Shown here one piece after another: positions 8,432 to 53,640 of a DNA stretch of 64,000 nt (position 1 is the first letter of the stretch; every line of letters starts with the position of its first letter). The notes beneath the pieces are model-generated. The model was not told the origin of the DNA, did not search any database, and was given only the letters and a program-made list of their open reading frames with translations. The DNA lies in contig CAZIIR010000001.1 of the NCBI GenBank assembly GCA_964539475.1, forward strand, positions 2,869 to 66,868. The letters are read 5' to 3'. The position numbers and the translations under genes were made by a program. The stretch is from an uncultured Candidatus Saccharibacteria bacterium. Lineage in GTDB: Bacteria > Patescibacteriota > Minisyncoccia > Phycocordibacterales > XYD1-FULL-46-19.

Positions 8432-8470
8432 CTCCAGAAGCTAAAAAACTATGCAAAGACTTAGATCCAG

Positions 8471-8653
8471 ATGAATAAATATATTGGATATTTTAATGGC
8501 AAGCAGACTACTGTTGAAGCAGAGACTTCTTACGAGGCTCTACAAAAAGCTGTAGCTATTTTTAAGCCAGCTAAAAGTAAACAACACATGGTTCATGTTC
8601 ACTTGCATGAAAAGGATGGAAAGGCTATATATCACTCAACCGCTTCTTTATGA
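8471..8653 (+). CDS. hypothetical protein
   Basis: ORF track. Confidence 0.4.
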   Translation: MNKYIGYFNGKQTTVEAETSYEALQKAVAIFKPAKSKQHMVHVHLHEKDGKAIYHSTASL

Positions 8654-17931: not shown

Positions 17932-18008
17932 ACGCCTATAGCTCAGCGGTTAGTAGCGGGGATCTCATAAATCCTAGGTCGTTGGTTCGACTCCAACTAG
18001 GCGCACCA
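17932..18008 (+). tRNA. tRNA with anticodon CAU (Met or Ile2 type), CCA encoded, A1-C72 mismatch
   Basis: The cloverleaf was folded by hand. Acceptor acgccta/taggcgc, T-arm gttgg-TTCGACT-ccaac, anticodon loop CTCATAA, 3' ACCA. Confidence 0.8.
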
Positions 18009-26761: not shown

Positions 26762-27040
26762 TTACAAGTTAATCCTCGCTCTATTCTTCGCCTTCGACTG
26801 GAGGCGAAGATTAGTAATTTTATTAGTGCCTCCAGTTGATATTGGTTTCTTGTGATCTACGTCCTTATTCTTCATCATAGCTGATGCGCGTTTAGGTCCG
26901 TATTTCTTGGTAAGAAACACCTCCATATCACGCCTAGCTTTATTTCGCTGCGACCTCTGCTTTATAGTTTTTTTATTATAAAGCTTGTCTTTTGTGTAGT
27001 CTCTTCCGGTTGACTTATTATGGACTCGTTTCTTCTTCAT
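26762..27040 (-). CDS. HNH endonuclease, last gene of the late operon
   Basis: DVDHKKPISTGGTNKITNLRLQSKAKNR HNH motif. Confidence 0.55.
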   Translation of the reverse strand: MKKKRVHNKSTGRDYTKDKLYNKKTIKQRSQRNKARRDMEVFLTKKYGPKRASAMMKNKDVDHKKPISTGGTNKITNLRLQSKAKNRARINL

Positions 27041-30000
27041 ATGCAGCTAATTGTTCTTCGCGTTCTTTGCCTGATTTTTCGATTAAGCTACTTGCCCTAA
27101 AGTATCTCTTGATGTCTGGTTGTGATACACCAATCACTGCCGCAAGATTTACAAAATCCAGTGGTGATATAGCCTCTGGTTTTTGAAAGAACTTAGAACC
27201 GCTTTCAATAGCATCGACTATTCCTTCCACCGTTCCACCAAAACTTCCACCGATATTAGCAATTGTTCTTTGCTCATATACGGCAGGAAGAAACTCTTGC
27301 ATCTGAATGTTTGCCAACTCTTCACTTAGAAGAGTTACAGTCTTACGGTTTTCAAGAGCCTTGTGTCTTTTGATTAGTTTTTGGATTCGATCAATTTCTC
27401 CTTTTTTCCAAGCCTTGAAGGTTTCAGCCTCTGGTCCGTCAGATCCTACATGAATAATTATATTAGGAACAGCTTCAAGGTTAAACGGAATAAACATGTT
27501 AGATGCTGCATCCTTTACTGTCTTGATTGAAAGAATCCTTGTGTTGTTAGTTCTGTTTTGAATATTCTGAATAACCTTACGATTCTTTTCTCTCATAGAA
27601 ATCTCAGCATTGAGTGTGCGACGCTCATTTTTTGTCATTCTATTTTGAGACTTAGAGTAAAGCTTTTTTAATTCCTCCTCTTCTTCTGGATTCTTCAATG
27701 CATGAACAATAGCGGCAGCCATTCCATACTGAACTGCATATGCCATCATTGTATATGTTACAGATTGAGCAGCAATACCCATCATGTATTTAAATGATTT
27801 GGCTTTTTGTTCTCTACTTACATCTGAATCAAAAAGCCTTCTCATTTCCTTTCCAAAGTTTACAGCGTTATTGATCGAGAACGACCTAAACGCTATTAAT
27901 AAATTTCTTGCAATACTTATTTTAGCATCCTTGTTAGTGAGATACTCACCACGACGAGAAGCATCACCAATACCTATATAACGCTCTGTTGCGTCAATAG
28001 CTTTTATGTATGACACTGGATCGTATGTAAGGTCTTCAAGTCTGACATGAGTTCCTTTTGAGTCCTGTTCAGCATTAAGGTATTCAGCAAGTGCCATAGG
28101 AGCACCTGACAATGTATCAGAAAGCCTGAATGCTTTAAACAGAATATTTTCGATTCCTTTATCAACACCAACTACTGCCCTATACAAATAAGGCATTTCC
28201 TTTTTCATCATTTCAACTAATGAGCTAGGATTAATATCCAGATTAACTGATTTGTCGATTTCTTGGAATTGCTGGCGATGAGTTACTTCAAAGATAACCT
28301 TATCCACAAGTCTTGCTTGATGAGGTTCAAGCATTCCCATTCTGTGTTTTAATAAATATGTTGCAGCTTTAAAATAGTTGCCAATTTTGTGTGGCTCATT
28401 AATGTGCTGAACAAAGTATGGAGTAGTATTTGAAACAAGCTGTGCTGGCAACTGATGTAAACCAGACAATACGCCCTGAGCCCATTTTCTTCCAACCCAG
28501 TTTGTAGCAACATGGTATGAATGCATGTATGATGCTTGAGACATCACATTCTGCCACGTTCCATTCATCGCACTTCTGAATGCATCTGTCCGACCTCTCT
28601 TTTGTTCTGGATCACCTAAGAACTTAGCAAACAATTTTCCATTCTTGTTTTTGTGATTCAGCAATTGAGACATCTCCTGTCTTGCATGTGCTGTAAAATA
28701 ATCATACACAGCAATCCTGCCAAGAGACTCACCGGCATAATTTATATTAAACACAAGAGAACGATTTGTTCCTATTTTTCTTGTTCTCGACTTAGTAGAA
28801 CCAAGTCCAGTTGTATTTGTTCCATAAAATATTTGTCCAGAAGAGAATGATTGAGCATCAGTTAGCATTTGAGCTTTGGCGATATCAAAATCTGTATCAC
28901 CTTCACCTTTGATGATAACTGACATTGTTGGAATGTAGTTCTCGATTTCCTCAAATGGTCTTCCATAAATAAACTCTGTAGTGAACTTAGAAAGAGGTTT
29001 TAGTGCATCATACATCTTAACGATACCATCTGCATATTGGATTCCCTTGTCTCCAATAAATATATTAGCATTCTGGTAGAATTTAGCAACATCTTCTGGT
29101 GTGAAGTCAGAAGTAAGTTGTCCATTTTCTATAGTGTAGTTAATACCAGACAGGAAGTTATCTTCAAGATACTCTTGATGACGCTTTCCTTGTGCATCAA
29201 AGTCTCTATCGTAAACTCCAATAGTATTTTTATTAGAGTCAAGAACCCATTGGACGCTTGCTTTAAATCCCTCTTCAGGAGATTCAACTAATTTTCTTTG
29301 ACGAAGGATTCCAAACATTCCTATCTTGTTAGCCATGTCAGCATCAAGAACACCGTTATAAACATCACTTTGAAGTGATTCAATGTATGGTGTAATAACT
29401 TCTTCGTGATACCGTTTAGCAAGAACAAGACCTTCACGGAATGGTGCTTGAAGACGAGTCAAAAGATCGTAAGAATAACCATCGGTTGCAAGTCGTTCAA
29501 TCTGACTTGAGTTAGATTCAAGTTTAGATATGTCAGAGTTCTTTTTTCTTGTCCCGTATGGGTCACTAAACGTGGCCTCCATGTTTCTAATGATATCTGT
29601 TGTCTCACTACTAATAAATCCCTCAAGACGATTTGGATAGCCATCAGTAACAAGACTAAGAAGTGAGTAATAAACTCTGCGTAAATCTCCACCACTAAGA
29701 GATGTTGCATCCGTAGTAATTAAACTAAGCGCGTATTCATTAAATAGCTTACGCATTATTGCAACTTGTTCTCTTAGAATTGGAATACCATTATCCAAGA
29801 TTGGATTACCTGTCTCTACAAGGCTGCTATCAAGATCAACAACTCCACGGTTAATAATATCACTAATATCATCAATTGCTTCAATAGCTTGGAACTGGAG
29901 ATCAACAACAGCATCCATTGTTGCAATGTCAGAGTCGTTAATAACAACGGATGCAAGATCATCGTTCTTCTCTTGAATAAGGTCTTGAAAGTGTTTTCTC

Positions 30001-33000
30001 GCAGCGCCAGCGTCTTCATTAAAGAATGCAAACTCAGGAAATCCCTCTACTCGACTTGCGTAGAACTCGTATTCGTTTTTGTTAGCTTTCTTTTTATAGT
30101 CGATCAAACGCTGTTCAAGTGTGTCAACAGGAATCCTTTCAGTGGCAGGATTTTCCTGTTTGTTGCGAGTATTAACAAAGTCTTGATAATCAGCCAAGAA
30201 AGCCTCTACGTCATTATCGTTAAGGAATGCGTATGGAACACCTTTGAAAGCGTTGTTGATTTGAATTTCTTTACCCATGAGTTTTTGCTCATAAGTTCTC
30301 TTGATTAGTTTAGCTATTTCCTTAGAAGCTTTGGATTTAGATTGTGTAATAATTTCATTATCAGTCACAATCCAATCAAGATCGTTGTCTTCTGTTGGTT
30401 CTACTGGAGCTTTTTGTTTAGGCTGTGATTTGCTAAAACGAATGTCTGGAGAATTAGAGAATCGTTGAGACAAAGGAATTACATTACCTTGATCGTCTTT
30501 TGTAACAGGGTCTGAGGATTTAAATTGAGAAGAATCAAACCCAGCAATTGCGTCTGCTTCTTGCTCTGCGCTTTTTTCTCGTAAAAGAAAACCATCAAAA
30601 CCAGCTTCCAGTAGTTCTTTTTTTAACTGCCCCTTGTTTAATCTCTCAAAAACTGGACTCTGCATTCCATTGCTTGGCTTGGCCTTAACTCCCAACGATT
30701 GGACAAATGTATCAAATTCCTGGTTGCTAACACTTCCAGATCCAAGCTGCCGAAAATCTGCCGGATTTGAAATATTATGATAAAGACTCAATGATTTATC
30801 TCCAAAAAGTTGAGAATACTTTTTGTTTTCTGTGACGTATATCAACCCAACACCATCTGTCTTAATAGGAGATACCAAAAAACTTCTTCCTGTTGAGGTT
30901 AATATATTTCTAATCCTTCCAAATATATTAAAATCAGAATTTGTTGAATGAATAACCATAGATGGTTTGTATCCAGCCTCTTTAGCAGCCTCATCAACCA
31001 TCTTTTGAGCGGTGTCTAAATCACCAGACTTAACTGCCGCCAAGTATTTTTGATCTTTAACATTATTATTAGGCTGTGATTTACTAAATCTAAGTAGTCC
31101 ACGGTTTTGTGGAACACTGAACATGTATCCGGTGTTGGTGTCTTTATTAAACACAGCAGACTTACCTTTTCCGTGCCTACCAACTGTTACTTTTTTAGGT
31201 TGTGAGTTAGTAAGTTTTTTAAGACCGTTAGGAACGCGCTCGTCGTATGCGGCTTTCATTCCTGACTCTTGTTCTATTTTTGGAACTGATTTTTTTAACA
31301 GATCAGCTCTAACTGTTTCTCCATCATAAGTTGTTAAGCGATAGATATTACCGTCTGGTCCTTCTGATTTTATTCCAGGTATAGCTCCTTCGCTTCCATC
31401 TGCCATTGTATAAGTAGTATCAATATCAGTCCTGGGAATCCAATCATCTGGCATTTTAATGTTACCATTATTATACGATGCATTTTCTATAATATCTCCA
31501 TCTTTTTCTGGATTTGCAAGTTCATAAATATCACCAACTTGATCATGCCCCTCAGTCATCATTGCTGTTTCAGCATCGCTTGTAATAATTTTATCAGCAC
31601 CTTGTTCTTGTGCAAAATTAACAGCGGCTTTAAGTGCAAGTGATTCCCAATAGTTTAGGAGCGGAGATGAAATATCTTCTCCAAGACTTTCCCATTTATC
31701 AATAAGAAGAATATTGTCTTCTTTAGATATTACTTCATTTTCTTTATATTTATAAATATCAACACCAGTATCTTCTGCTTCTCGTTTTGTTAAATGCAAT
31801 GAATTAGACGACCCTTTTTTGCTAATAGTAATAGAATCATCTAAAAGCTCTATTACAAGATCAGATTTTTTATAACCATCTAATCTATTTTTGTCTCTAC
31901 TTAATTTTCCAGCCCAATCGCTTTGAACTTCCCATATTTCAAGAATGCGAGTTGGTTTAGTTGCGGTTGTTCCGTCTGGTAGTTTGTTTCCAGTTTGGTA
32001 TTCATGGATACCACCACGAACGAATGCTAGTTGGTTTGCTTTAACACTACCTTCGTAATGCTGAGATTCAAATTTAGGTTTTGGAGTTACTGTTGCTCCT
32101 GTGTCTCTTACGAATACAGTAATTGTTCTATTTTCATCGTAAATTGAAGACTCAGATGTTGTTACAAAATACCTAGGTTCTGGATATTTATTTTGAAACT
32201 CCTCAAGCTTACCTTCCTTTTCTTCTATTGGAAAGGATTCTTTTACAATATATTTATTATCATATAAAGAATTATCTATTTTATTTAAAGAAGATGATTC
32301 TTCACTTGGAAGTGGAACATTCAAACTCAAATCACCAGACCAAATAAGCTTATGTCCAGGCTCGATTTCTTCACCTTTAAGTTGTTCGTTTGAGTATGGA
32401 TCTACTCCGTATTTTCCGGTGGCAGAGCTATTTTTTGCCGCTAAGAAACTACCGGTAGAATATAGTTCAATATATTCATTAGCAAGTTTCTTTGCATTTT
32501 CTGGAAGTTCTTCTAATTTAACACCACCAAATGTTTTAAATACAGCAGTTTCACCAGTAAACATTGGAGCGTCAGGCGCAAACCCAATGGTTTCTAGTTC
32601 GTGCTGAACAACACCAACTGTTCTGCTTAATGCGCCACCACTAAAATCTAACTTATTTATTACAACAGTAGGAACTGTGTCGATCACTTCCGCCAGTTCC
32701 GACATATTAACACGACCATTTTTTGATAAATCGTTAACAAGTTGTGTCAGTGTATCAACCTCAAACTCAGTAGCTCCTGATTTTTTGATCTTAGCTGCAA
32801 GGTTTTGAGAAGGAAGAGTTCCATCTTTAGCCACAACAAGACCCATTACATTTTCAGGGTCTTTTAGTTGGTCAGCAAGACGAAAATCAAACTGGTTGGT
32901 TGAACGACTAAAGCGAGTTGCTGCTGGAGTTTTGTATAAATACTTATCTCCCATTATAACATTTTTATCACTGTTCATTCCTGCGAACTCAAGAACAGCT

Positions 33001-36000
33001 TTTTGAGATGAATTAAGTTTATACTGCTCATCAACAAGGATTGACGATCCGTTTATGACACGAAGATAACCACGTTTAGCCATTTCTGCATAAACCTGAG
33101 TAACCGTCATTCCTTCTATAGCTTCTTCGCCAATAATGTCAATAGCTTTTCCAAGATGGTCTTGATAACCAACATCGATTATTTTTCCATTAGGCGCAAT
33201 CCAAGCTCCGTATCCACGAATAACAGAATCCATGTAAACTGATTGGTGGGATTTGGAATACTGTATTTCTCCATTTGTTGTTATATCAGAATCAAAAGCG
33301 GTCTGAATAATAATATCAAGATCATTAACTGTCCAGTTTGCTGTCCCTGCTTTCAGGAACTTAATACGAATCCAATTAACAATCTTTTCAATAATTGATT
33401 TTGATTCTTTATCCTTTCCTTCTGTTAGTTTAGCAAAAATTTCATCAACAATTTCATTTTCTGTTAAGTTTTCTTTTGCATATGCAGCACTTGTTCTTTC
33501 CCAAACATTTGAACCGTCTCTCCATTTAAGGGTTTTTAAGAATGTAACTAAATTATTAAACCCTTCTTGGCTAATGCCAGAAAGAACGCCACTTAGTTTA
33601 AGATGACCAACAACTTCATGTTTAAATATTCTTTCTACCGCTTCCACATGTGACTCTCCTTTATGTGGAATAATATTATCAAGAATAATTGTAACATTGC
33701 CTTTTTGGACAAAAGCTTCAACGATGCTCGTAACATCTTCACGATTTAATTCCTCGTGTGTGTTTACGATCTTAAGGTCTTTCAGTCCAACGTCTTTTGC
33801 AAGCTCGTTAATTCTGTCAGTCTGCTCTTTTCTGCGAGCTATGTTTTCAGGAGTGTTTTCGCGTTGTTTGGCAAGAGTAGCTTGTGATTCTTCTCTGAAC
33901 TGCTCAATCTCTTGTTGAAGAATATCTAAAATATCAGGCTCGGATTCTTCAACCGGAGCGGTGTCTTGAACAGGAGCAATGGTTTCTTCAATAGCCTGCT
34001 CGACGGTTTGTTTAGGTGCTTTCTCTTTACCTTTCTTGATTGCAGTTTGAATGCTTTGTGCAAACTTATACAAGTCTCCATCGTAAGATGGAACACCATA
34101 TATTTCTGCAAGCTGTGGAAAGTTAGCTTCTGAAAGAAATCCACGACTAATTAAATTATTAAGACGATCTCCAGTAAAGTCACCTTTTTTAGAAAGTGAA
34201 ACAATCTGCATTAATGTTCCTCGATCAACTTCCTGTGCTGGCTGTTGTTCTGGATTTTCTTTTTTAGCAGTGAGTTCAGCAAGCTTAATTCTTGATGCGC
34301 TTTTTTGGCTTTCTGTATATTCACCACTCTTATCATTAATAACTTTATTATGAAGCGCAATACGATCTTCAATTGAAATTTGAACATTTGGCTGAATACG
34401 AGCCTTGTCTGCTTCTAGTTTTCCTATCCAATCTTTAGAGCGTATTTTTTGTTGTTCGGTTGCATTGTCGTCGTTTAATATTTTGTTGTGATAAGCCAAT
34501 GCCTTATCAATGCTTTCAATAGCTGCGCTTGGATTCTCAGTCTCATTGATCTGGTCAATGGTTTCGATTGTTGGAAGAACTGGTTCTGGTTCTACTGTAG
34601 GTTCTACGGTATCTTCTTCAACAGGCTCTACCGCAGGTGTTTCCACAGGCGTTTCCACAGTTTCTTCAACTGGAGTTTCAGCTTTTTTCTTTTTTCGTGA
34701 CGATGGCTTTTTAACTTTTGGAGCAACAACTTTCTTTCCTTCTGGAGTATTTTTATTAAGCTTTTCTGTTGCTTCATCTATTCTGGTTTGATCAATTGTT
34801 TCTGTTTCAACAACTGGAGCTTGTGTTTTTTCCAACTCATTGTAACGAGTTAGCTCAGTTGGTGTAATAGTATTATTAATCTTTTTTTCAAGCAAGTTTT
34901 CAAACTCTGCTTTATCTTTGTTATCAATAACTTCACTATCATCAACAAGAGAAGTCTTAGGCTTAACTTCTGCTGGATCAATTGCTTCCGCTGGTTCTTT
35001 AGTGGCAACTTCATTAGCTTCTCTGACTTGAGCTAATATTTTTATTTTGTTTCCAGTTACAACGACAGGAACCCACCCAACTTGTGGATTAACAGAAGCT
35101 TCGTATCTTTTAGCTAGTCCTTTAAATTTAACAAATCTCCTGTTAGGTGTTACCTGTAATGTAACAGGTGCTCCTAATGCTTTTATTAGGTTGGCGTTTT
35201 TAACCAATGCCATTCCTTCTTGTTTTACATAAATAACATTATCATTCTTTAGTTTGGTGTCATCATTAAGAGTAACATCAAATGGCTTCTTGGTTTGAAG
35301 CTGCTTATCTTCTCCTTTTAATATGAAATTTGTATCATTAGACTCAAACTCAGTTTCTTCTTGAAAAGCAATAGGACCAGCCGATGTTCCATCATCGTTT
35401 ATCTTTTCAAACAATCCTCTTGCTTTTTTTAACCTTTCAAGTTTATCTTTGTCTTTTACTGGATCAAGGTCTTTTTCAATTTTATTAAGCTCATCGGTAT
35501 ATGGCTTATTTGCAATTCTAATTTTAGACTGCTCTGGAAGAACCTCTCCAAGTCTTTCTTTTAGAGTAGCTTCTGCTTTGTCTTTGATCGGAGTTCCAGA
35601 AGGGTCGAGAGATGGCTTGGTATCTCCCTTAATAATTTTATCAGGAGCTTTTGCTGTGACATTAGAATTAGCTATTTCAATAGCCTTGTCGTAGTTACCC
35701 GCTTTGATAGCATCAAAGATTTTTAACTCTTTAGCTTTTGTGTCAGCAATACTAACTGTTTTACCAGCATCAGTTAATTGTGCAATAGTTGCAGAAACAT
35801 TAGCTTGGTTTGATCCTTTTGTTAATCCAGCTATTCCAGTACCAACCATTGCACCAACTGTTCCTTCGACAGCAAATGAACGAGCAAGCTCTCCGATATT
35901 AGTAGCATTCTTTAAATACTGCTCATCTCCAGTTGCATAGTAATCACCAAGGTTTCCGGCTACATCTGTTCCTACTCCACCAAGCAAGCCTTCGTTTAAA

Positions 36001-36968
36001 GAACCAAGAGTAAATCCCTTAACTACAGATGGTAAATATTCTTTAATAACGGCTCTTTTTGCAGCTTCTGTTGTAGCTGCATTAAATGCGCCAGCAAATC
36101 CTTTTACTTTTCCGAAAGCACCACCAAGAATAGACTCCGCTCCACCGTCAATAATACCGGCAGGAATTGCATTAACTGCGGCATCTTGTGCAACTAATTC
36201 ATTACCAGTTCTTTTAAGTTCACGATTATATGCTTCCGTCATATGACGGGCAGTTGACATCGTAAGAAGCGTTGGAGCAACAAGCTCTGGTGCTCCTGCG
36301 GCAGTCATACCAGCAGACAATGCCATTTGGCTAAGAAAATTACCAAGTCCACCAACTACTTGTGAACTAAGATTATTATCAAACTCTGGATTCTCAACCA
36401 AGTTTTTAGCAAAGAACCTATTGGCTTCTTTGTAGTCAGCAAAAAGATCAACACCAAGACCTCTAATTGCCTGTTCTGTGAATCGTTTAACTGAATCAGT
36501 CAAGAAGTCAGGCATACCACCTGGCTTGTAAGAATCCTTGGCAAGCTCACTCTTAATTAAATTATTAGCAAGGTCTTCGATGTGAAATTCAAAATCTTTT
36601 GCTATTGATGGTGCTTTTTTTGCAGAAGAAGGAACAGCATTATCTCTCCAGTCTTCAATAGACTTAACTCTCTTTTCAACAGGATCGTTAGCGTTTATAT
36701 TAATCTGACCATACAAATCGGCAGCCTGCTCAGGAGTTGGTGTAAAACGAGGAATATTTACATTGTGACGATATGATGTAAATATTTCAGCGGATTTATC
36801 ATTAACATACTTTAAATCCTCATCTTCTTTAATTTCGTTTTCATTAACAAATGTTTTACGAAAAGACTCGAAGGCAAGTGGCTTCCGCTCATCTGGAACA
36901 GAATTAAACTCTTCGCTGGCAAGATAACCTCTTACAATGTCTGGATAGTCAAATGAAGTGAGTGGCAT
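27018..36968 (-). CDS. giant (3316-aa) virion or ejection protein carrying a zincin-like HExxH motif, a Gly-rich N-terminal region, a PT/PE-rich linker and internal repeats
   Basis: One uninterrupted ORF. HEVVGH at residues 1117-1122 (about 33603-33620). A TPVE repeat linker. Duplicated ~35-aa units LAYHNKILNDD and IALHNKVINDK. No DxDGD or T7-like RNAP motifs found by eye. Confidence 0.7.
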   Translation of the reverse strand: MPLTSFDYPDIVRGYLASEEFNSVPDERKPLAFESFRKTFVNENEIKEDEDLKYVNDKSAEIFTSYRHNVNIPRFTPTPEQAADLYGQININANDPVEKRVKSIEDWRDNAVPSSAKKAPSIAKDFEFHIEDLANNLIKSELAKDSYKPGGMPDFLTDSVKRFTEQAIRGLGVDLFADYKEANRFFAKNLVENPEFDNNLSSQVVGGLGNFLSQMALSAGMTAAGAPELVAPTLLTMSTARHMTEAYNRELKRTGNELVAQDAAVNAIPAGIIDGGAESILGGAFGKVKGFAGAFNAATTEAAKRAVIKEYLPSVVKGFTLGSLNEGLLGGVGTDVAGNLGDYYATGDEQYLKNATNIGELARSFAVEGTVGAMVGTGIAGLTKGSNQANVSATIAQLTDAGKTVSIADTKAKELKIFDAIKAGNYDKAIEIANSNVTAKAPDKIIKGDTKPSLDPSGTPIKDKAEATLKERLGEVLPEQSKIRIANKPYTDELNKIEKDLDPVKDKDKLERLKKARGLFEKINDDGTSAGPIAFQEETEFESNDTNFILKGEDKQLQTKKPFDVTLNDDTKLKNDNVIYVKQEGMALVKNANLIKALGAPVTLQVTPNRRFVKFKGLAKRYEASVNPQVGWVPVVVTGNKIKILAQVREANEVATKEPAEAIDPAEVKPKTSLVDDSEVIDNKDKAEFENLLEKKINNTITPTELTRYNELEKTQAPVVETETIDQTRIDEATEKLNKNTPEGKKVVAPKVKKPSSRKKKKAETPVEETVETPVETPAVEPVEEDTVEPTVEPEPVLPTIETIDQINETENPSAAIESIDKALAYHNKILNDDNATEQQKIRSKDWIGKLEADKARIQPNVQISIEDRIALHNKVINDKSGEYTESQKSASRIKLAELTAKKENPEQQPAQEVDRGTLMQIVSLSKKGDFTGDRLNNLISRGFLSEANFPQLAEIYGVPSYDGDLYKFAQSIQTAIKKGKEKAPKQTVEQAIEETIAPVQDTAPVEESEPDILDILQQEIEQFREESQATLAKQRENTPENIARRKEQTDRINELAKDVGLKDLKIVNTHEELNREDVTSIVEAFVQKGNVTIILDNIIPHKGESHVEAVERIFKHEVVGHLKLSGVLSGISQEGFNNLVTFLKTLKWRDGSNVWERTSAAYAKENLTENEIVDEIFAKLTEGKDKESKSIIEKIVNWIRIKFLKAGTANWTVNDLDIIIQTAFDSDITTNGEIQYSKSHQSVYMDSVIRGYGAWIAPNGKIIDVGYQDHLGKAIDIIGEEAIEGMTVTQVYAEMAKRGYLRVINGSSILVDEQYKLNSSQKAVLEFAGMNSDKNVIMGDKYLYKTPAATRFSRSTNQFDFRLADQLKDPENVMGLVVAKDGTLPSQNLAAKIKKSGATEFEVDTLTQLVNDLSKNGRVNMSELAEVIDTVPTVVINKLDFSGGALSRTVGVVQHELETIGFAPDAPMFTGETAVFKTFGGVKLEELPENAKKLANEYIELYSTGSFLAAKNSSATGKYGVDPYSNEQLKGEEIEPGHKLIWSGDLSLNVPLPSEESSSLNKIDNSLYDNKYIVKESFPIEEKEGKLEEFQNKYPEPRYFVTTSESSIYDENRTITVFVRDTGATVTPKPKFESQHYEGSVKANQLAFVRGGIHEYQTGNKLPDGTTATKPTRILEIWEVQSDWAGKLSRDKNRLDGYKKSDLVIELLDDSITISKKGSSNSLHLTKREAEDTGVDIYKYKENEVISKEDNILLIDKWESLGEDISSPLLNYWESLALKAAVNFAQEQGADKIITSDAETAMMTEGHDQVGDIYELANPEKDGDIIENASYNNGNIKMPDDWIPRTDIDTTYTMADGSEGAIPGIKSEGPDGNIYRLTTYDGETVRADLLKKSVPKIEQESGMKAAYDERVPNGLKKLTNSQPKKVTVGRHGKGKSAVFNKDTNTGYMFSVPQNRGLLRFSKSQPNNNVKDQKYLAAVKSGDLDTAQKMVDEAAKEAGYKPSMVIHSTNSDFNIFGRIRNILTSTGRSFLVSPIKTDGVGLIYVTENKKYSQLFGDKSLSLYHNISNPADFRQLGSGSVSNQEFDTFVQSLGVKAKPSNGMQSPVFERLNKGQLKKELLEAGFDGFLLREKSAEQEADAIAGFDSSQFKSSDPVTKDDQGNVIPLSQRFSNSPDIRFSKSQPKQKAPVEPTEDNDLDWIVTDNEIITQSKSKASKEIAKLIKRTYEQKLMGKEIQINNAFKGVPYAFLNDNDVEAFLADYQDFVNTRNKQENPATERIPVDTLEQRLIDYKKKANKNEYEFYASRVEGFPEFAFFNEDAGAARKHFQDLIQEKNDDLASVVINDSDIATMDAVVDLQFQAIEAIDDISDIINRGVVDLDSSLVETGNPILDNGIPILREQVAIMRKLFNEYALSLITTDATSLSGGDLRRVYYSLLSLVTDGYPNRLEGFISSETTDIIRNMEATFSDPYGTRKKNSDISKLESNSSQIERLATDGYSYDLLTRLQAPFREGLVLAKRYHEEVITPYIESLQSDVYNGVLDADMANKIGMFGILRQRKLVESPEEGFKASVQWVLDSNKNTIGVYDRDFDAQGKRHQEYLEDNFLSGINYTIENGQLTSDFTPEDVAKFYQNANIFIGDKGIQYADGIVKMYDALKPLSKFTTEFIYGRPFEEIENYIPTMSVIIKGEGDTDFDIAKAQMLTDAQSFSSGQIFYGTNTTGLGSTKSRTRKIGTNRSLVFNINYAGESLGRIAVYDYFTAHARQEMSQLLNHKNKNGKLFAKFLGDPEQKRGRTDAFRSAMNGTWQNVMSQASYMHSYHVATNWVGRKWAQGVLSGLHQLPAQLVSNTTPYFVQHINEPHKIGNYFKAATYLLKHRMGMLEPHQARLVDKVIFEVTHRQQFQEIDKSVNLDINPSSLVEMMKKEMPYLYRAVVGVDKGIENILFKAFRLSDTLSGAPMALAEYLNAEQDSKGTHVRLEDLTYDPVSYIKAIDATERYIGIGDASRRGEYLTNKDAKISIARNLLIAFRSFSINNAVNFGKEMRRLFDSDVSREQKAKSFKYMMGIAAQSVTYTMMAYAVQYGMAAAIVHALKNPEEEEELKKLYSKSQNRMTKNERRTLNAEISMREKNRKVIQNIQNRTNNTRILSIKTVKDAASNMFIPFNLEAVPNIIIHVGSDGPEAETFKAWKKGEIDRIQKLIKRHKALENRKTVTLLSEELANIQMQEFLPAVYEQRTIANIGGSFGGTVEGIVDAIESGSKFFQKPEAISPLDFVNLAAVIGVSQPDIKRYFRASSLIEKSGKEREEQLAAYEEETSP

Positions 36969-43764: not shown

Positions 43765-44871
43765 TTAAGCCCAAAAGCCTATTAGCGTAACAGTAGAGCT
43801 TGCAACAACTGGTGTTCCAGAAAGAATATTAGATTGAAGTGTAACAGTTCCACCGGAAGTTGTCACAACAAACACTCTTCGTGTAATAAATACAGATTCA
43901 CCTGCTGGAACATAAGCTACCTGTAACTGTGTTCCATTAACAGTAATATTCATTATTGACCCTGTTGCTCCTGCGTCTTCAATTACAAGAATAAGCTCAA
44001 GCTCAGCAACTACAGCACCACCACAAAGAGATATAGATGGAGCATTAAGACCTGCCCATGAATATGCTATAGATGTAGTATGACCTGTGTATAGATTATT
44101 AAGCCTTAAGTCCAATGACTTTCTATCGTGAGCAACACATAATGCTGGCTTTCCTTTTTTTAAGCATCCTTTTTCATCTGTGTAAACAAGATACTTGTGA
44201 GTCAATACATCGTTGTATGTAACGCTTGCTTCATTTGTTATAGACATTTCTGGCATACACAAAGTCCTGCCACCTTGTCCTGTAAATATGCGCTTTATCT
44301 TACGAAGACAAGCCTCGATAAATGTTCCACCAAAAAGAAATGCAGCCTGATGGTCTGGATCGGTATCAAGTTCTGGAGTTGCATAAAAGCAAATCTCATC
44401 TGATTCGTTTAATATTTTTATTACAGAATCAACTCCTTCTGTTTCAAGAAGAGTAAGAAATTGCTCTTTCAGATAGTCAGAGCATCCAAATGGAGGTGCT
44501 GGAAAAATAACCGCTCCTTCTGGAATTACAACTCCGGGCTCTGGATTGCCAGCTACCTTATTAATTGTATTTCCTTTCTCGCATCCATTAAGAACCTTAA
44601 GGACACGCTCTCCGACTTCTGTTATTCGATAGAATCCATACTTGGATTTACCAATTACAATTCCAACATACTGACCAACCCCCCACAGTTTAGCTTGGCA
44701 AACATGAAGATTTGCAATCTTTCCAACTGCTGGAACTGTAAAGTCCTCGATTGATCTATCGTGGAATTTACCAGATTGCGATGTGCATGGTGATCCTTCG
44801 TTCTGAACATCACTACAAAGAGTTGATGCAGGTATAAGGATTTTATCTTCGTTTTGGCATCCGCAGGACAT
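43765..44871 (-). CDS. Cys-rich putative tail protein
   Basis: ORF track. Confidence 0.45.
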   Translation of the reverse strand: MSCGCQNEDKILIPASTLCSDVQNEGSPCTSQSGKFHDRSIEDFTVPAVGKIANLHVCQAKLWGVGQYVGIVIGKSKYGFYRITEVGERVLKVLNGCEKGNTINKVAGNPEPGVVIPEGAVIFPAPPFGCSDYLKEQFLTLLETEGVDSVIKILNESDEICFYATPELDTDPDHQAAFLFGGTFIEACLRKIKRIFTGQGGRTLCMPEMSITNEASVTYNDVLTHKYLVYTDEKGCLKKGKPALCVAHDRKSLDLRLNNLYTGHTTSIAYSWAGLNAPSISLCGGAVVAELELILVIEDAGATGSIMNITVNGTQLQVAYVPAGESVFITRRVFVVTTSGGTVTLQSNILSGTPVVASSTVTLIGFWA

Positions 44872-44873
44872 AA

Positions 44874-45605
44874 TTATTGAGGGTAAATTATTTGTAAGAA
44901 TCTAATATCATTATTAGAAAGTTTATCATTCCATCCAACTGTTATATTTGCAAGACCTTGTGGTATTGGATATTCCATAATGGAAGTAGCATCAAAATCA
45001 GTTGCCGTGTATCGTGAAGCTTTGCTTCTGTTTAATACTTGAAAGTCTATTTGCTCTTTAGACCATCCTTGTGTTGATGCGTAATATTTATATACAGCAG
45101 ATTTATTCCAAATTAGATTAATTGCTTTTGGACTTTGGTGTTCATGCTCAAGACCTATTGCGTGAAGAATTTCATGTTGAGCAACACGATCCCATTCTGC
45201 TTTTCCATCACCAAAAACACCAGACTTAAGCTCAAGATTCATTGTAGCTTGATTGCTAGAAATAGTCTTGCAATCAACACCTAAGTAACTCCAGTGCCCT
45301 TGTCCTGAATCAAACCTAACTCTGATGTCACTAGGTCCAGTTGTTACTTGAGTAAAGCGAAGATTAACTAAATTATCAATCGCCTGAAATCGCTTCCATG
45401 CTTCTGCTTTTTGTCCAGCTTTTCCTGTCAAAAACTTAACACGAAGAACTGACTTCTGTGTCCAAAACTTTGAGTTTTGACCCCATGCTTTTAGTGCAAG
45501 GCTGTTTGTTTGCATTGCTCGAATAGCAACACAACTTTTGCATTTATCGTCAGCTATGACATTAAATGCAAATACTGATAAAATTATTACAAGTAGTGTT
45601 TTCAT
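44874..45605 (-). CDS. secreted zinc metallopeptidase of the metzincin type (HExxHxxGxxHE, astacin-like) with a signal peptide
   Basis: HEILHAIGLEHEH at residues 144-156. N-terminal MKTLLVIILSVFAFNVIA signal-like sequence. Confidence 0.55.
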   Translation of the reverse strand: MKTLLVIILSVFAFNVIADDKCKSCVAIRAMQTNSLALKAWGQNSKFWTQKSVLRVKFLTGKAGQKAEAWKRFQAIDNLVNLRFTQVTTGPSDIRVRFDSGQGHWSYLGVDCKTISSNQATMNLELKSGVFGDGKAEWDRVAQHEILHAIGLEHEHQSPKAINLIWNKSAVYKYYASTQGWSKEQIDFQVLNRSKASRYTATDFDATSIMEYPIPQGLANITVGWNDKLSNNDIRFLQIIYPQ

Positions 45606-46027
45606 TATCGTCTAACCGACCAAACATCAGAGATTGAGTATTTTGAAATATTAACCTCGTTGCTTTGATTTCCACCAAGGCAGTATATAAACTTACCTTG
45701 AACTTTTTCAAGAAGAGTAACATGATTTCCTCCTGATCTCCTCATAATAATTGTATCGCCTTTTTTCCAATGATGCGAAGCAAGAGGAACTTCAATTCCC
45801 CATTTAGACCATTCAGCGGCACGATAATGTTCTTTAGGAACTCCTGTTCCTGTCTCAAGTCCCCAAAGACCACGTATGCATCCACACCAAGCTGTTTTAG
45901 AATCATCCTCGTTTAGCCATGATGCAGAAAGCTTAATAGCCTGCTTTATTCTTGGCGTTGACTTTGATCCTGGGGTCTCCTTAAGACCAATGTCTTTTAG
46001 AGCATGATTATAAATTGCTTCACTCAT
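45605..46027 (-). CDS. CHAP/NlpC-P60-like peptidoglycan peptidase (endolysin candidate)
   Basis: Cys-containing TAWCGCIRGLW and downstream GGNHVTLL (His), arranged as in the CHAP fold. Confidence 0.5.
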   Translation of the reverse strand: MSEAIYNHALKDIGLKETPGSKSTPRIKQAIKLSASWLNEDDSKTAWCGCIRGLWGLETGTGVPKEHYRAAEWSKWGIEVPLASHHWKKGDTIIMRRSGGNHVTLLEKVQGKFIYCLGGNQSNEVNISKYSISDVWSVRR

Positions 46028-46034
46028 AATATTT

Positions 46035-46472
46035 TCATTTCAAGAAGTTCTTAAACAGGTTTCCTGTTTCTTTTATTGCTCCAACATTGGCTTCTGGATT
46101 TGATCCTAATACCGTTGCAGCTTGTCCTGTTGTTTTTATTAACAACTGATCTGTTGCTGCACTACTTCGGATTCCTAGTTGTGCTGTCGCTTGTTTTCCT
46201 GCGTTGTATGCATCGTATGATCCTGCTGCTAGTGCTGATGCCCCATATGAAACTACACCATTAATACCATGTTTAAAGCTTGCTTCATCATCTGTTTTGA
46301 CATACATTCCTTTTCCTTTTGTTGAATCAAACTCAGCTTTTCCTCCCATTTTAACCAAAAGGTTTTTTTCTTTCTTTACCTTTCCTTGGCTAATTTCAGT
46401 CTTTGAGTTATAAGCTGTTGTGCAAGAAACACAAAGCAAGCACAGTAATATATTAATTAGTTTCGTTTTCAT
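46035..46472 (-). CDS. lipoprotein (spanin-like candidate)
   Basis: Signal peptide plus Cys: MKTKLINILLCLLCVSCTT. Confidence 0.45.
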   Translation of the reverse strand: MKTKLINILLCLLCVSCTTAYNSKTEISQGKVKKEKNLLVKMGGKAEFDSTKGKGMYVKTDDEASFKHGINGVVSYGASALAAGSYDAYNAGKQATAQLGIRSSAATDQLLIKTTGQAATVLGSNPEANVGAIKETGNLFKNFLK

Positions 46473-47007
46473 CTTTTTCTTTATTTAATTTGTCTGTTAT
46501 TCTTTTTTCTGCCTCTGTTAAAATAGACTCCGCATAAGAGTCCGACTTTTTATATACTTTCTTTATCAATGATAGTGAAACTATGAAAAAGAAGCCAGTA
46601 ACAATAGCTCCTCCTATTAGCATCATAATGGGATGAAGTATTAATTCTTTACCAACTGGTAAAATAAGTGAAAGAATTATATTAGCAGCACTACCAAGCA
46701 TTAAAGAAAACCCTGCTCTACCACATGTTACATTAGGAGGTTCTTTTCTTATCCTGAAAAGAATAAGACACACAACCATTAATGCTCCACCAAGTAAAGG
46801 AACAAGAAGTCCTCTTAGTTCTGATATATCATTAGTCAACCTTTCTTCTGCCCATATAACAAATCCGATAATAGAAGTAAACATTCCTGCAAAACCCCAT
46901 GTTATCAATTCAATTATTGGTATTACTCTATGTGGCATATTAGTTGTGTCCAATCCTCCGTGATCCTTATCTATAAGAGACTTTTTTAGTTTGTGAGCAC
47001 TGGTCAT
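46453..47007 (-). CDS. four-TM membrane protein (holin candidate)
   Basis: Four hydrophobic helices. Adjacent to the lysis enzymes. Confidence 0.45.
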   Translation of the reverse strand: MTSAHKLKKSLIDKDHGGLDTTNMPHRVIPIIELITWGFAGMFTSIIGFVIWAEERLTNDISELRGLLVPLLGGALMVVCLILFRIRKEPPNVTCGRAGFSLMLGSAANIILSLILPVGKELILHPIMMLIGGAIVTGFFFIVSLSLIKKVYKKSDSYAESILTEAEKRITDKLNKEKDENETN

Positions 47008-47066
47008 GTTTTGGCTTCATCTAATGTTTTTATTACATTTTATTTAAACCTATCAAAACATAATAA

Positions 47067-47450
47067 TTAATGAATATATCTTGAGCTAAGTTTTGATCCA
47101 TAAAATCCACTTGGAGGATTTGGGCCTTGCCAAAACTCGGTTCCATCTTTGCATTTTACAAGTCGCACTGCTTGGTATTTTGCACCATTTTCCCAACTAA
47201 TAACTTTTACTGTTCCTGGGTAGTATGTTCCGCTAGAGTCTGTTTCTGGTTTTCCTGCTTTGGCAATTATATTATCAGAAGAACGCATTACTTCTGCGTC
47301 TCTTTTTCCGCTTGCCATTCCCCTTAGTTGATCAAGATAATTAGAATTATAAAGATTTCCAGAATCTGATTCTATTACAAAATCAGGAGAAGAACAAGAA
47401 ACCAATGTTAAAATAACACTATAGACTATTGTGATGTATGTTTTTTTCAT
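47067..47450 (-). CDS. lipoprotein
   Basis: Lipobox LTLVSC after a signal peptide. Confidence 0.5.
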   Translation of the reverse strand: MKKTYITIVYSVILTLVSCSSPDFVIESDSGNLYNSNYLDQLRGMASGKRDAEVMRSSDNIIAKAGKPETDSSGTYYPGTVKVISWENGAKYQAVRLVKCKDGTEFWQGPNPPSGFYGSKLSSRYIH

Positions 47451-50915: not shown

Positions 50916-51566
50916 CTACTCCTCTGTAATCACATCAACTGGACTCACGATGATGTAAAAATCAAGTGCTGGCATTGTGCATGAAGCAGCGTTTGCATTC
51001 AGATACTTAACTTTTACTCCGTAGATATGTCCTGGGAATATGTTGTTAGCTATAGTATTACCTTCGTCCGTGTCTTTGTCATGAAGACTTGTTGACGTAA
51101 GAAGAAGAGTATTACCAATTTGAGCACCTGATGTAAAATCCCAAAATCTTACTTCAAGACTTGCTGCTCCTACATAAGCACCACCACAAGCATTCCAGTC
51201 AATGGTGGAAACACCAATTCCTAAAACCTTGTTATTAAATGGCGATTTTGAATACTGAGTTATTGTTTCATCATTAGGATCAACTGTATCTCCCTCTGGT
51301 GTAGAAAAAAGAATAATACCAGAGGCATAACCTTTCTCCTGAACTCGATCAGTGTATTCCCTAATTGCTGCCGCAATATCAACCAGTGCTCCATACAAAT
51401 TAATAATGCCGTCACCTAAAGTGTAGCATGTATGTTTTGTATATCTAATGAATGTTGACAAAAACGATGGCTTGGTAGCTGTTCTTGCTTCACATGTGCA
51501 ATCTTCTGTTGGCATAGTCGTAATATTTTTATTGTTACAAAAAAGGGGGAGTAGGAATGACCCCAC
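50916..51566 (-). CDS. hypothetical capsid-associated protein (possible ATG start at M18, about 51515)
   Basis: ORF track. Position immediately downstream of the MCP. Confidence 0.4.
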   Translation of the reverse strand: MGSFLLPLFCNNKNITTMPTEDCTCEARTATKPSFLSTFIRYTKHTCYTLGDGIINLYGALVDIAAAIREYTDRVQEKGYASGIILFSTPEGDTVDPNDETITQYSKSPFNNKVLGIGVSTIDWNACGGAYVGAASLEVRFWDFTSGAQIGNTLLLTSTSLHDKDTDEGNTIANNIFPGHIYGVKVKYLNANAASCTMPALDFYIIVSPVDVITEE

Positions 51567-51588
51567 TCCCCCAATTTTTCATCATCTA

Positions 51589-53640
51589 TTAAGCACAAGT
51601 CACACGAATACTCACAGCACCTTCTCGGAATGCGCATCCGAAACCAGCTTCCGCAGTCTGAATGACATAGGTAAGCGTATCTGGATTAACACTAGAGATT
51701 GTTCCGCTAATAGCAGTGCTGATAATAACACCTTCTTCATCGTAGAAGCCGACGTTAACAGTAGCTCCAACATTGCAGTTCAGAGAGCTGTCAAGAACGA
51801 CCTTGATTGCATCTTCTGCTATTGCATCGTCATCAGTGCTATCAGCACAACTAACAACAGTTCCGTAAGTTGGGGTTGCATCTGGACATCCAATGTATGC
51901 AATGCACTCATCAGCAGCAAGCGCAGAGGCAAGCTTGATAAGAACAGTCCAGTCTGGATTCACTACATTCGGGCGGAAGATTTCGACAATCGTAGCCGCG
52001 CGAACCTTGGTAGTATCTCCAGAATCATCATCATTGATGTGAACCTGAATAGTGCTACCGCAGACACAAGAACCAAGAGGAGATTGATTAGGAGCAATCG
52101 AATCTTGGTTTTCCTTGCGAATCTTAACCATGTAATGAAGATTTGCAGCATCACCACAGGATTTGGTGGAGCATTTAACCTTCCTTACACTGGAGGAGCT
52201 AGTAATATTATTACTAACCTTCGTGTTGTTAGGATTGCAACCAATGGTCAGAATCGAGCAACTCTGAGTCTTTGGAACGATGGTGAACACAGGCTGGAGA
52301 TCGCAAGTATTTGGAGCGCGAAGACGAATCTTTTTAGCGCGAGCAATCATACCCCAACTTGCATCAGGATTAAGCATACGGAAGCCCATTTCATACCGCT
52401 TACGGAAGTGAGGCATGTTAAGGTCTTCGTTACACTCCTTATCGTAATCGTTACGATATTCCCAATCGCCCTTACCGGAGATAGGATGAATTGGCATTCC
52501 TTCGATACCAGTCGAGATAACTGGACGACTAAGGATTTCACCAGCACCCTTACCAATGGCTTGAACAAGGAAGAATGGAGCGTTACGATATTCACGGAAG
52601 TCGTAAACAGAACGAACACCAGTGTCAACCTCAACGTCTTTACGACCCTGAACAACAGCGAGTCCACCTTCGGAGCTTTCTGCAAAGCGAGGAAGGGCTG
52701 GAACAGAGCGCATAATAAAATTACCAATAGTATGACGCTCTTGGTCTTCATACACAGAGCCGTTCAACATCGGCACTTTTTGTGTGTATTTAGAACGCTC
52801 GATATACTCTGGATTATCAAGGATTTCCCTCTTATACCAGTCTTCTGGATACCAGAACTCAAACAATGGCTCACCACGCTGACCCTTAGCAATATAGTTA
52901 GGATTGCGAGAATCAGTCAATGCGGAGCCGAAGTTATCCAAGAAGGACAAGTCAACAGGCATGATGTTGCTTGGGTTTCCAACCTGAGGATACAACGGAT
53001 TCATGTAAGAGTAGCGATACCCTTGCAGAGCATTGTATGGACTAAAGTTTTCAACTGGAACAATATTGCCAGAACCATCGTTCTCGACTTCAAGAGCCCA
53101 TTTGTGACCAGTCATCCGAATGAGAGCCATGGTATAGAATATATTCATTACCTGCTCGTCAACAGAGAACCGCTCCTTCACAATCATTTCGGCAATTTGC
53201 TTTGCCTGCATGGAAGTGCGGATATTAGCGATACACATACGACGGGTTTTGAAGCCGGTCTTATACATTTCCAATTCAGGAATAGCAGAGATGCCTCCCT
53301 GTGGAATTTCGCAGTAATCCGTATGACATTCATTAGCAGAACCAGGAGAGCAAATCTCCATGGAACGCTGAAAGATCCCCATGTCAAAGGGAATATGAGC
53401 AGAGTGATAAACTCGACCCAATTCGGTTGTTCCGCTCCAGTCTTTCCACTCACGAACTGGAAACAGTCCGGTGAGGTATTTATACATGGAGTCATACATG
53501 ACTTTCATTTGTTCCACCTTCTCGCTCCAAAGAGCGTTAGGTCCGTCTTTAAAAACCAAGTCAATAACTTGGTCGCGAGACATGTCGTCTCCACAGGCTT
53601 CTACCTGATCTATCCATTCGTCTGATGTTAAGTGTGGCAT
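51589..53640 (-). CDS. major capsid protein candidate with a Cys/Ser/Thr-rich C-terminal extension
   Basis: Position after the scaffold gene, size, operon orientation and composition. The 725-aa antisense ORF is rejected. Confidence 0.5.
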   Translation of the reverse strand: MPHLTSDEWIDQVEACGDDMSRDQVIDLVFKDGPNALWSEKVEQMKVMYDSMYKYLTGLFPVREWKDWSGTTELGRVYHSAHIPFDMGIFQRSMEICSPGSANECHTDYCEIPQGGISAIPELEMYKTGFKTRRMCIANIRTSMQAKQIAEMIVKERFSVDEQVMNIFYTMALIRMTGHKWALEVENDGSGNIVPVENFSPYNALQGYRYSYMNPLYPQVGNPSNIMPVDLSFLDNFGSALTDSRNPNYIAKGQRGEPLFEFWYPEDWYKREILDNPEYIERSKYTQKVPMLNGSVYEDQERHTIGNFIMRSVPALPRFAESSEGGLAVVQGRKDVEVDTGVRSVYDFREYRNAPFFLVQAIGKGAGEILSRPVISTGIEGMPIHPISGKGDWEYRNDYDKECNEDLNMPHFRKRYEMGFRMLNPDASWGMIARAKKIRLRAPNTCDLQPVFTIVPKTQSCSILTIGCNPNNTKVSNNITSSSSVRKVKCSTKSCGDAANLHYMVKIRKENQDSIAPNQSPLGSCVCGSTIQVHINDDDSGDTTKVRAATIVEIFRPNVVNPDWTVLIKLASALAADECIAYIGCPDATPTYGTVVSCADSTDDDAIAEDAIKVVLDSSLNCNVGATVNVGFYDEEGVIISTAISGTISSVNPDTLTYVIQTAEAGFGCAFREGAVSIRVTCA

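Follow-up and report, generated by a model that had tools for sequence, protein, structure and literature searches.

An exported astacin-family protease recurrent in phage lysis cassettes and its possible role as an accessory lysis factor

Phage lysis of Gram-negative bacteria is usually described with three players, namely a holin, an endolysin and either a spanin or a disruptin. Endolysins exported through Sec or signal-anchor-release (SAR) sequences leave the cytoplasm before holin triggering and are kept inactive until then. In mycobacteriophages, the action of LysB, an esterase directed at mycolyl-arabinogalactan, has been shown experimentally (reviewed in PMC6116114). In Listeria monocytogenes, the Mtz-Tim pair consists of a secreted metzincin and a lipoprotein similar to the tissue inhibitors of metalloproteinases (TIMP-like); the pair is of phage origin, is prophage-encoded downstream of the holin-lysin genes and raises the sensitivity to phage-mediated lysis, for which its proteolytic activity is required (PMC8235301). 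A 2023 review of the astacin family mentions a single viral astacin, from a reovirus, and none from phages (PMC9848320). The structural reference used here for bacterial astacins is myroilysin, a cysteine-switch astacin of MEROPS family M12A from Myroides profundi D25 and Myroides sp. CSLB8 (PDB 5czw, 5gwd and 5zjk). The present analysis concerns a stretch of 64,000 nucleotides (GenBank assembly GCA_964539475.1, contig CAZIIR010000001.1, positions 2,869 to 66,868), referred to below as the window, and in particular a minus-strand gene at 44874-45605 encoding an astacin-type protease at the end of a five-gene lysis-type cassette. As far as could be found, the distinct astacin clade to which it belongs, located in the lysis cassettes of phages with likely Gram-negative hosts, is apparently undescribed; the enzyme family itself is known and the idea of such a protease has one precedent. 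Full-text searches of the literature on phage astacins or metzincins and lysis returned nothing relevant beyond Listeria Mtz-Tim, and no close structural equivalent of the protease originating from a phage was found in BFVD.

The 243-residue product carries the astacin zinc motif HEILHAIGLEHE from H144 to E155. This zinc-binding and catalytic motif was read directly from the translation (H144-E-I-L-H148-A-I-G151-L-E-H154-E155; 45141..45176, minus strand), and its defining residues H144, E145, H148, G151, H154 and E155 are contained in VAQHEILHAIGLEHEHQSP. The Met-turn, S208-I-M210-E-Y212 (44970..44984, minus strand), follows the SxMxY pattern of astacins. Among 29 aligned homologues, H144, E145, H148, H154 and E155 are invariant, as are S208 and Y212 of the Met-turn, while G151 and M210 are each kept in at least 90% of the sequences. 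The Pfam Astacin model (PF01400) matches the protein with 29.0 bits for a cut-off of 22.5, and Peptidase_M10 (Matrixin) with 27.1 bits for a cut-off of 24. The best solved relative obtained with phmmer against PDB is myroilysin (E 4e-28, residues 45-243). An AlphaFold2 (AF2) model built on the 29 homologues reached a predicted local distance difference test score (pLDDT) of 85.6 and was aligned by Foldseek to mature myroilysin 5zjk with a template modelling score (TMt) of 0.93, a root mean square deviation of 1.4 A and 33% identity; crayfish astacin, fish hatching enzymes, BMP1 and the meprins came next among the matches. No match of the 243-residue protein to the peptidoglycan hydrolase families M15, M23, CHAP and amidase_2/3 was obtained in Pfam, NCBIfam or PHROGs. 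The zinc motif, the Met-turn, the profile score and the catalytic-domain fold of the astacin family (MEROPS M12A), with its myroilysin subgroup, are found in this protein, which is, on sequence and predicted structure, a small single-domain zinc endopeptidase of the myroilysin type. A first-pass annotation of the window, made by a model from the sequence alone, had proposed an astacin-type metzincin; the profile and fold checks agree with it, as a peptidase fold was found and an M15/M23 endolysin identity was not. One further profile match was rejected as a function. The NCBIfam model NF050131, named 'beta-glucuronidase AbsR1', aligned with 81 bits (E 7e-23) for a cut-off of 650, and the name was not used because the score lies far below this cut-off and the matched span overlaps the region recognized by the metzincin models. 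The AbsR1 name stems from Streptomyces SCO6992 (PMC9705864) and could mislead the automatic annotation of relatives of the protease.

The likeness to myroilysin extends to the fold, a full-length alignment, the HExxHxxGxxHE and SxMxY motifs, the single-domain size, a conserved cysteine in the pro-segment and the absence of the FxGD aspartate-switch motif known from animal astacins. The two enzymes differ in their setting. Myroilysin is encoded on the chromosome of a free-living bacterium, which secretes it abundantly as an elastase, whereas the window protease is phage-encoded and its gene overlaps that of an endolysin; it also falls in a separate clade, has a shorter pro-segment, and is predicted from its sequence to be active and latent.

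Export of the protease is predicted from its N-terminus. The signal peptide is assigned to residues 1-19 (MKTLLVIILSVFAFNVIA, followed by DD; 45549..45605, minus strand) by a rule of thumb combining hydrophobicity and residue pattern: K2 is followed by hydrophobic residues 3-16 (Kyte-Doolittle mean 1.91) and by V-I-A before D20, which sets the probable cleavage site. Such a signal is found in every relative, as a hydrophobic leader at the N-terminus, as a lipobox or as a multi-transmembrane (multi-TM) anchor. A lipobox is found ahead of the catalytic domain in L008, L107, L115, P0035 and P0043, where L-numbers designate loci with their flanks and P-numbers homologous proteins. In P0039, P0088, P0093, P0098, P0109, L009 and L112, a multi-TM N-terminal domain of about 150 residues is fused to the protease. 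As judged from these sequences, the Sec-type leader, the lipobox and the multi-TM domain are three routes to one extracytoplasmic location, and the secretion claimed at first for the window product is upheld both by its Sec-type leader layout and by its relatives. In L009 (7440-8681) and L112 (574-1758), the fusion of a TM domain to the protease occupies the spot expected for the holin. The N-terminus of the P0088 fusion scored 25.9 bits with Pfam Phage_holin_10, slightly under the cut-off of 27, which is a hint and not a proof of a holin nature; a comparison with PHROGs gave no useful indication that the fusion proteins begin with a holin domain.

The predicted location bears directly on the option, raised in the first-pass annotation, of a virion-associated depolymerase for mucus or capsule. 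The protease gene does lie near genes possibly encoding tail parts. The protein is however only 243 residues long and has no tail-attachment domain, and the leader, lipobox or membrane anchor present in every homologue places the protease outside the cytoplasm, where virions assemble. A depolymerase is for this reason very unlikely, with a probability verging on negligible.

The export signal is followed by a short pro-segment (about residues 20-41) holding the candidate cysteine-switch residue, Cys25 (45531..45533, minus strand). A cysteine occupies this column, just behind the leader in a C-[VT]-A-[IV] context, in 26 of the 29 aligned members, including distant bacterial ones. This conservation suggests, by analogy, a zymogen held by a cysteine switch of the myroilysin kind. 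The AF2 model is of low confidence over residues 15-38 (pLDDT <50) and its pro-segment remains unaligned to the myroilysin pro-peptide.

The five open reading frames (ORFs) of the cassette that had been annotated initially were all recovered on the minus strand at the same coordinates. In the order of transcription, they encode a 127-residue lipoprotein, termed lipoB (47067-47450), with a leader ending in LVSC and a globular alpha/beta body; a 184-residue membrane protein with four TM segments and a highly charged C-terminus, which is the holin candidate (46453-47007); a 145-residue lipoprotein, termed lipoA (46035-46472), with a leader ending in CVSC, an 'MGGK' motif, an Ala/Thr-rich tail and the C-terminal sequence GSNPEANV; a 140-residue endolysin candidate of the TIGR02594 family, a Cys/His peptidoglycan peptidase type (45605-46027); and the exported 243-residue myroilysin-type astacin, probably a zymogen (44874-45605). 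The genes of the 184- and 145-residue proteins overlap by 20 nucleotides. The stop codon of the endolysin gene overlaps the start codon of the protease gene in the sequence TAATG, and translational coupling of both genes is therefore probable. Only 2 nucleotides separate the protease stop codon from the start of the next gene (43765-44871), whose 368-residue product has no leader. No terminator-like site was found on the minus strand inside the cassette and promoter-like sites occur there at a frequency not above that of shuffled sequence; on account of this and of the tight packing, the five genes are considered as one late transcription unit, so that the phage would make the protease late in infection. 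The protease had originally been placed between tail genes and a CHAP enzyme. It does adjoin the endolysin; the downstream 'tail' genes were named by position only and have no family matches.

In order to place the protease among its relatives, 46 close homologues were gathered from a collection of 5.8 billion proteins. All of these are unnamed and almost all are metagenomic. The closest relatives are 39-98% identical to the window protease and form a clade of their own, the separation being judged by pairwise identity. Fifteen proteases linked to lysis genes are mutual nearest relatives, with 47-73% identity among the listed nearest neighbours, and the best identity of the window protease to relatives from bacterial genomes is 43%. 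The wider family amounts to 5092 clusters in the all-sources library and includes at least 519 relatives in bacterial and archaeal genomes. The members of the clade reside mostly in Logan and ENA assemblies, and a scan of JGI metagenomes gave few more in-clade loci. No match was obtained against 50,697 phage records, either by megablast of the region or by tblastn of the protease; among these records, no cultured phage relative carries the protease gene.

The 15 proteases belong to independent metagenomic phage loci ranging in GC content from 36% to 64%, and in each of these the gene is part of a lysis-type cassette or its direct neighbour. In 13 of the 15 loci, an endolysin gene, known or candidate, is found within a distance of four genes; the candidate of L001 is weak, and the endolysin of L110 is located about five ORFs downstream. 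The nature of the endolysin varies. Family or homology matches identify a TIGR02594 endolysin next to the protease in the window, L106 and L107, a Peptidase_M15_3 endolysin in L004, L005, L009, L110 and L112, a VanY/M15_4 endolysin in L108 and a CHAP-like endolysin of 174-177 residues in L109 and L114 (Pfam CHAP, E 0.001 for L109). Motifs read from the sequence point to further candidates, one type of 186-193 residues with an ES...GPWQV motif in L103 (9423-10004) and L008 (8866-9426), and another of 182 residues with an H...SxGC motif in L115, while the candidate of L001 has a weak Glyco_hydro_75 match (E 0.006). The protease is thus accompanied by four endolysin types when matches are counted and by seven when the candidates are included. 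Multi-TM holin-like proteins and lipoproteins are also held by the 15 loci, and small i-spanin-like proteins, consisting of an N-terminal TM segment and a coiled coil, are found in L108, L001, L004, L112 and L114. A partner that stays constant while the endolysin family beside it changes is a form of mosaicism typical of the components of lysis cassettes. The location in a lysis cassette, first claimed for the window alone, is accordingly reinforced, the linkage to lysis genes recurring in 15 independent phage loci with differing endolysin families.

The proteins with the ES...GPWQV motif constitute a side observation in their own right. They adjoin the protease at the spot expected for an endolysin, have no Pfam match and correspond only in part to a PHROG without assigned function; on their sequence, they may represent an undescribed lytic-transglycosylase-like endolysin.

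The same survey was extended to the surroundings of more distant family members, in about 160 further loci that are mostly contigs from bacterial genomes or metagenomes. When examined by tblastn with the seven endolysin types, a single one of them, L073, displayed an endolysin type nearby. L073 is a bacterial locus, on the chromosome of Antarcticirhabdus aurantiaca, and contains no phage cassette. At 4809-8597 of this locus, a 456-residue protein is located directly before a 788-residue protein with a C-terminal myroilysin-like domain; the C-terminus of the 456-residue protein matches Peptidase_M15_3 (tblastn) and its N-terminus reads like amidase_3.

The steady company of endolysins raises the question of a second cell-wall hydrolase, that is, an endopeptidase acting on the stem peptides or cross-links of peptidoglycan and complementing the bond specificity of the neighbouring endolysin. 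An endolysin always accompanies the protease, and in bacterial L073 a myroilysin-like domain adjoins what would be a fusion of amidase and M15_3 parts, the amidase part being a reading of the sequence. Among M23 enzymes, elastase activity is reported to go together with peptidoglycan-peptidase activity (PMC6273387). The predicted fold and cleft of the window protein are nevertheless those of a protein endopeptidase, and it has neither a match to M15, M23 or other peptidoglycan-peptidase families nor a cell-wall-binding domain. We know of no astacin or metzincin that cleaves peptidoglycan, and a second wall hydrolase is considered quite unlikely.

The reading preferred here is that of an exported, latent astacin protease acting as an optional helper when the host cell is lysed or the virions are released, and it is given roughly an even chance of being correct. 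The proposed mechanism can be summarized as follows. The protease would be exported to the periplasm through the Sec pathway and signal peptidase would cut after Ala19. Cys25 of the short pro-segment would then block the catalytic zinc and keep the protease latent, as in pro-myroilysin, until activation by removal of the pro-segment. The active protease would cut protein substrates of the envelope and not peptidoglycan. The envelope would in this way be weakened alongside the action of the holin and the endolysin, and lysis or virion release would become faster or be completed.

A number of points weigh against this helper role or restrict it. The L189 locus contains lipoB-like, lipoA-like, three-TM, DUF1353-like and CHAP-endolysin genes but not the protease, which is missing at the very spot where the related L115 has one. 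Since this related cassette is devoid of it, the protease is an accessory and not a core cassette gene. Spanin-like pairs are present in the protease-bearing L108, L114, L112 and L001, and with several carriers so equipped the protease is no simple replacement of a spanin. The cysteine switch rests on conservation and analogy because of the low confidence of the pro-segment model. The boundaries of lysis cassettes and modules are, moreover, classic sites for unrelated cargo genes. Finally, the characterised myroilysin is a secreted elastase thought to be nutritional (PMC4377995, PMC6331793).

The protease gene could also be regarded as cargo, a 'moron' at a permissive module boundary, whose secreted product would aid the nutrition or virulence of a lysogen as myroilysin would for Myroides. 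Its accessory character, the integrase of the carrier L004 and the large wider family with its bacterial and archaeal relatives are all compatible with cargo. Several features are not. Neither a promoter nor a terminator is specific to the gene, whose start runs into the endolysin stop codon; no integrase was found among the scanned window proteins, which represent a minority of the ORFs; and the phage clade is distinct from the bacterial homologues, with at most 43% identity. The position by endolysins is furthermore kept across very different phages, and the holin-like TM-domain fusions are hard to square with a nutritional enzyme. The probability of cargo is therefore rated as low.

A rival of another kind shares most of the premises of the helper role and shifts the moment of action. 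The protease would be kept in the periplasm until the burst sets it free and would then, as an extracellular enzyme, degrade protein receptors on debris and neighbouring cells, or proteins of the S-layer, the sheath or the biofilm matrix, leaving the virions untrapped. Export, latency and co-expression with the lysis genes suit such a post-lysis enzyme equally well, and the present-or-absent distribution of the protease suits a niche-dependent function. Myroilysin itself acts extracellularly on insoluble protein matrices (PMC4377995). The variants anchored as lipoproteins or by multi-TM domains would however stay on membrane fragments and not diffuse, and the fusions located where a holin is expected suggest that the protease works at the membrane or in the periplasm while lysis proceeds. 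The protease is also devoid of any C-terminal secretion or binding domain. A post-lysis enzyme, serving dispersal or the destruction of receptors, is on balance judged unlikely.

The remaining products of the cassette were analysed individually. The 140-residue protein scored 66.8 bits with NCBIfam TIGR02594, for a cut-off of 70.55, and matched PHROG 1259 with an E value of 8e-17; its homologues are found in 503 phage records, where they are often annotated as endolysin. The initial name of CHAP peptidase holds in so far as the protein is an endolysin candidate of the peptidoglycan-peptidase type. The label is only loosely right because Pfam CHAP gives no match, the protein being of the TIGR02594 type. 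The 184-residue protein displays hydrophobic segments at residues 29-47, 61-79, 100-118 and 127-145, in agreement with the four TM segments first announced, and ends in a Lys/Glu-rich tail. It is the sole holin candidate of the cassette and shows the general traits of holins, namely TM segments, a charged C-terminus and a location by the endolysin. The cassettes of L106, L005 and L110 each have a homologue at the equivalent place. No match to the holin families of Pfam and PHROGs was obtained for this protein, the best match being 8xMP with an E value of 0.008.

The leaders of lipoA and lipoB both end in V-S-C and the mature lipoproteins, of 108-128 residues, are not Pro-rich, whereas o-spanins are small outer-membrane lipoproteins in which Pro is usually abundant; lipoA has its Ala/Thr-rich tail while lipoB is globular. 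The first-pass annotation had seen a spanin set in these two proteins. This proposal is not retained: no ORF with the N-terminal TM segment and coiled coil of an i-spanin was found between 44.8 and 48.5 kb, and neither lipoprotein has the C-terminal TM or hydrophobic segment of a u-spanin.

A word-indexed search returned only 4 close homologues of lipoA. A weak transitive similarity connects it to lipoproteins of L001, L005 and L008, and a weaker one, by way of L008, to L106. A lipoprotein of L189, read by eye, has the same GGK motif and the same GSNPEANV ending. A loosely conserved lipoA family, whose members share a 'GG' motif and an Ala/Thr-rich tail and partly also the GSNPEANV ending, is in this manner observed in many of these cassettes (window 46035-46472, minus strand; L001 8373-8792; L005 8310-8687; L189 7384-7827). 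It recurs beside a multi-TM protein, both in cassettes with the protease and in those devoid of it, and may represent a lysis component that is so far undescribed.

The lipoB protein has 23 homologues sharing many invariant residues. Its AF2 model (pLDDT 80, alpha/beta) found no significant match in PDB using Foldseek. In the 4 loci examined (window 47067-47450, minus strand; L189 7001-7387; L190 7001-7381; L191 7001-7387), the gene either follows a large tail-fibre-like gene immediately or is separated from it by one small gene. In L189, L190 and L191, the lipoB-like gene follows the tail-fibre-like gene both in the presence and in the absence of lysis genes beyond it, and lipoB is therefore associated with the tail fibre rather than with lysis. 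Instead of being a spanin, lipoB may be a lipoprotein that blocks a receptor, by analogy with Llp of T5. Two other functions were considered for the lipoproteins and rejected. For lipoB as a TIMP-like inhibitor, the Foldseek comparison with PDB gave no significant match and no TIMP among the listed matches. For both lipoproteins as specific partners of the protease, L189 holds both types and L190 and L191 hold the lipoB-like one, all without protease.

A possible receptor blocker in the same region brings in superinfection exclusion, whereby the protease would cleave an envelope protein needed by other phages for adsorption or DNA entry. The exported state of the protease and the presence of the tail-fibre-linked lipoB are in line with this. 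Expression together with the late lysis genes would nonetheless occur when exclusion gains little, and the conserved neighbour of the protease is the endolysin, not the tail fibre. The chance that the protease serves exclusion is slim.

With the cassette described, the helper role can be compared to the systems mentioned at the outset. Mtz-Tim may be, by analogy, the closest precedent for the possible mode of action of the window protease. Both comprise a secreted metzincin encoded by an accessory gene downstream of holin-lysin genes with lipoproteins nearby, the order in the window being four-TM protein, lipoprotein, endolysin and protease. The differences are nevertheless substantial. The host of Mtz-Tim is Gram-positive and the Met-turn of Mtz reads AIMLD. 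Mtz needs the TIMP-like lipoprotein encoded directly downstream, whereas the 368-residue protein without a leader is found there in the window. The modelled fold of lipoB is not TIMP-like and lipoproteins of the window type also occur in cassettes without protease. No similarity to Mtz was detected, the two being compared only through tblastn of the window protease against the 50,697 phage records. The window system is not a member of the Mtz-Tim pair type, since no TIMP-like partner follows the protease, lipoB lacks the corresponding fold and sequence similarity was not detected.

The likeness to LysB resides in an extra cassette enzyme, present besides the peptidoglycan hydrolase and proposed to cut the ties between the outer layer and the wall (PMC6116114). 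LysB is however an esterase, whereas the window enzyme is a protease whose target and effect are hypothetical. Spanins belong to the same cassette as the protease and, as proposed here for the latter, serve the final step of Gram-negative lysis, but they are devoid of any enzymatic domain and work by fusing membranes. The Sec- and SAR-exported endolysins are peptidoglycan hydrolases held by a membrane tether or by the proton-motive force, whereas the window protease would be held by its pro-segment.

The host was approached through the homologues of the endolysin, helicase and tail fibre, which are found in phages with listed hosts belonging almost exclusively to Gram-negative genera. Together with the spanin-like pairs of the related cassettes, these sequence relationships make a Gram-negative-type host likely, as had been suggested initially. 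A Shine-Dalgarno-like core is located upstream of 7 of the 82 window genes, which corresponds to background, and the upstream regions are A-rich; the GC content of the window is 36%. Low Shine-Dalgarno usage and A-rich upstream regions at 36% GC are a pattern known for Bacteroidota, and a host of this phylum would be predicted for the window phage. Shine-Dalgarno-like motifs are 2-3-fold enriched in L001, L004, L107 and L108, with no enrichment in L005 and L103. The protease clade probably spans several host groups because its carriers differ in this enrichment.

The window as a whole resembles a phage genome. A replication module on the plus strand encodes UvrD-like and SNF2-like helicases, a DHH phosphoesterase and a DnaA-like ATPase, and includes a lone tRNA-Met (CAT) gene at 17932-18008 (plus strand). 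The minus-strand module begins at about 26.8 kb, where the GC skew switches sign, and contains a homologue of short tail fibres. Most structural proteins, a 3316-residue ORF, the four-TM protein, lipoA and lipoB have no match in PHROGs or Pfam. The 3316-residue ORF (27018-36968, minus strand) is located at the end of the minus-strand late module. Giant ORFs occupy the same region of related contigs, with 1889 residues in L005 and about 6108 residues in L189, the latter displaying InPase- and helicase-type domains. A near-complete overlap of two long ORFs on opposite strands was also observed, one of 725 residues at 51448-53625 (plus strand) and one of 683 residues at 51589-53640 (minus strand), the minus-strand ORF being the one that agrees with the direction of the surrounding genes.

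A bolder proposal can be derived from the helper role and is put forward as possible, if doubtful. The phage astacins would constitute a new functional class of lysis protein, periplasmic zymogens switched on at lysis, which would cut the protein links between the outer membrane and the cell wall (OmpA-, Pal- or Lpp-type tethers) or process the lipoproteins of their own cassette. If the cutting of tethers is true, a proteolytic step would be added to Gram-negative phage lysis, with a logic comparable to that of mycobacteriophage LysB. The recurrence of the protease by interchangeable endolysins in many unrelated phages, along with its holin-like fusions, would make it a fourth, optional player of lysis. 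If confirmed, a new type of component would be added to phage lysis and a biological role to the myroilysin branch of the astacins, and a small self-latent protease sensitising Gram-negative envelopes would become available.

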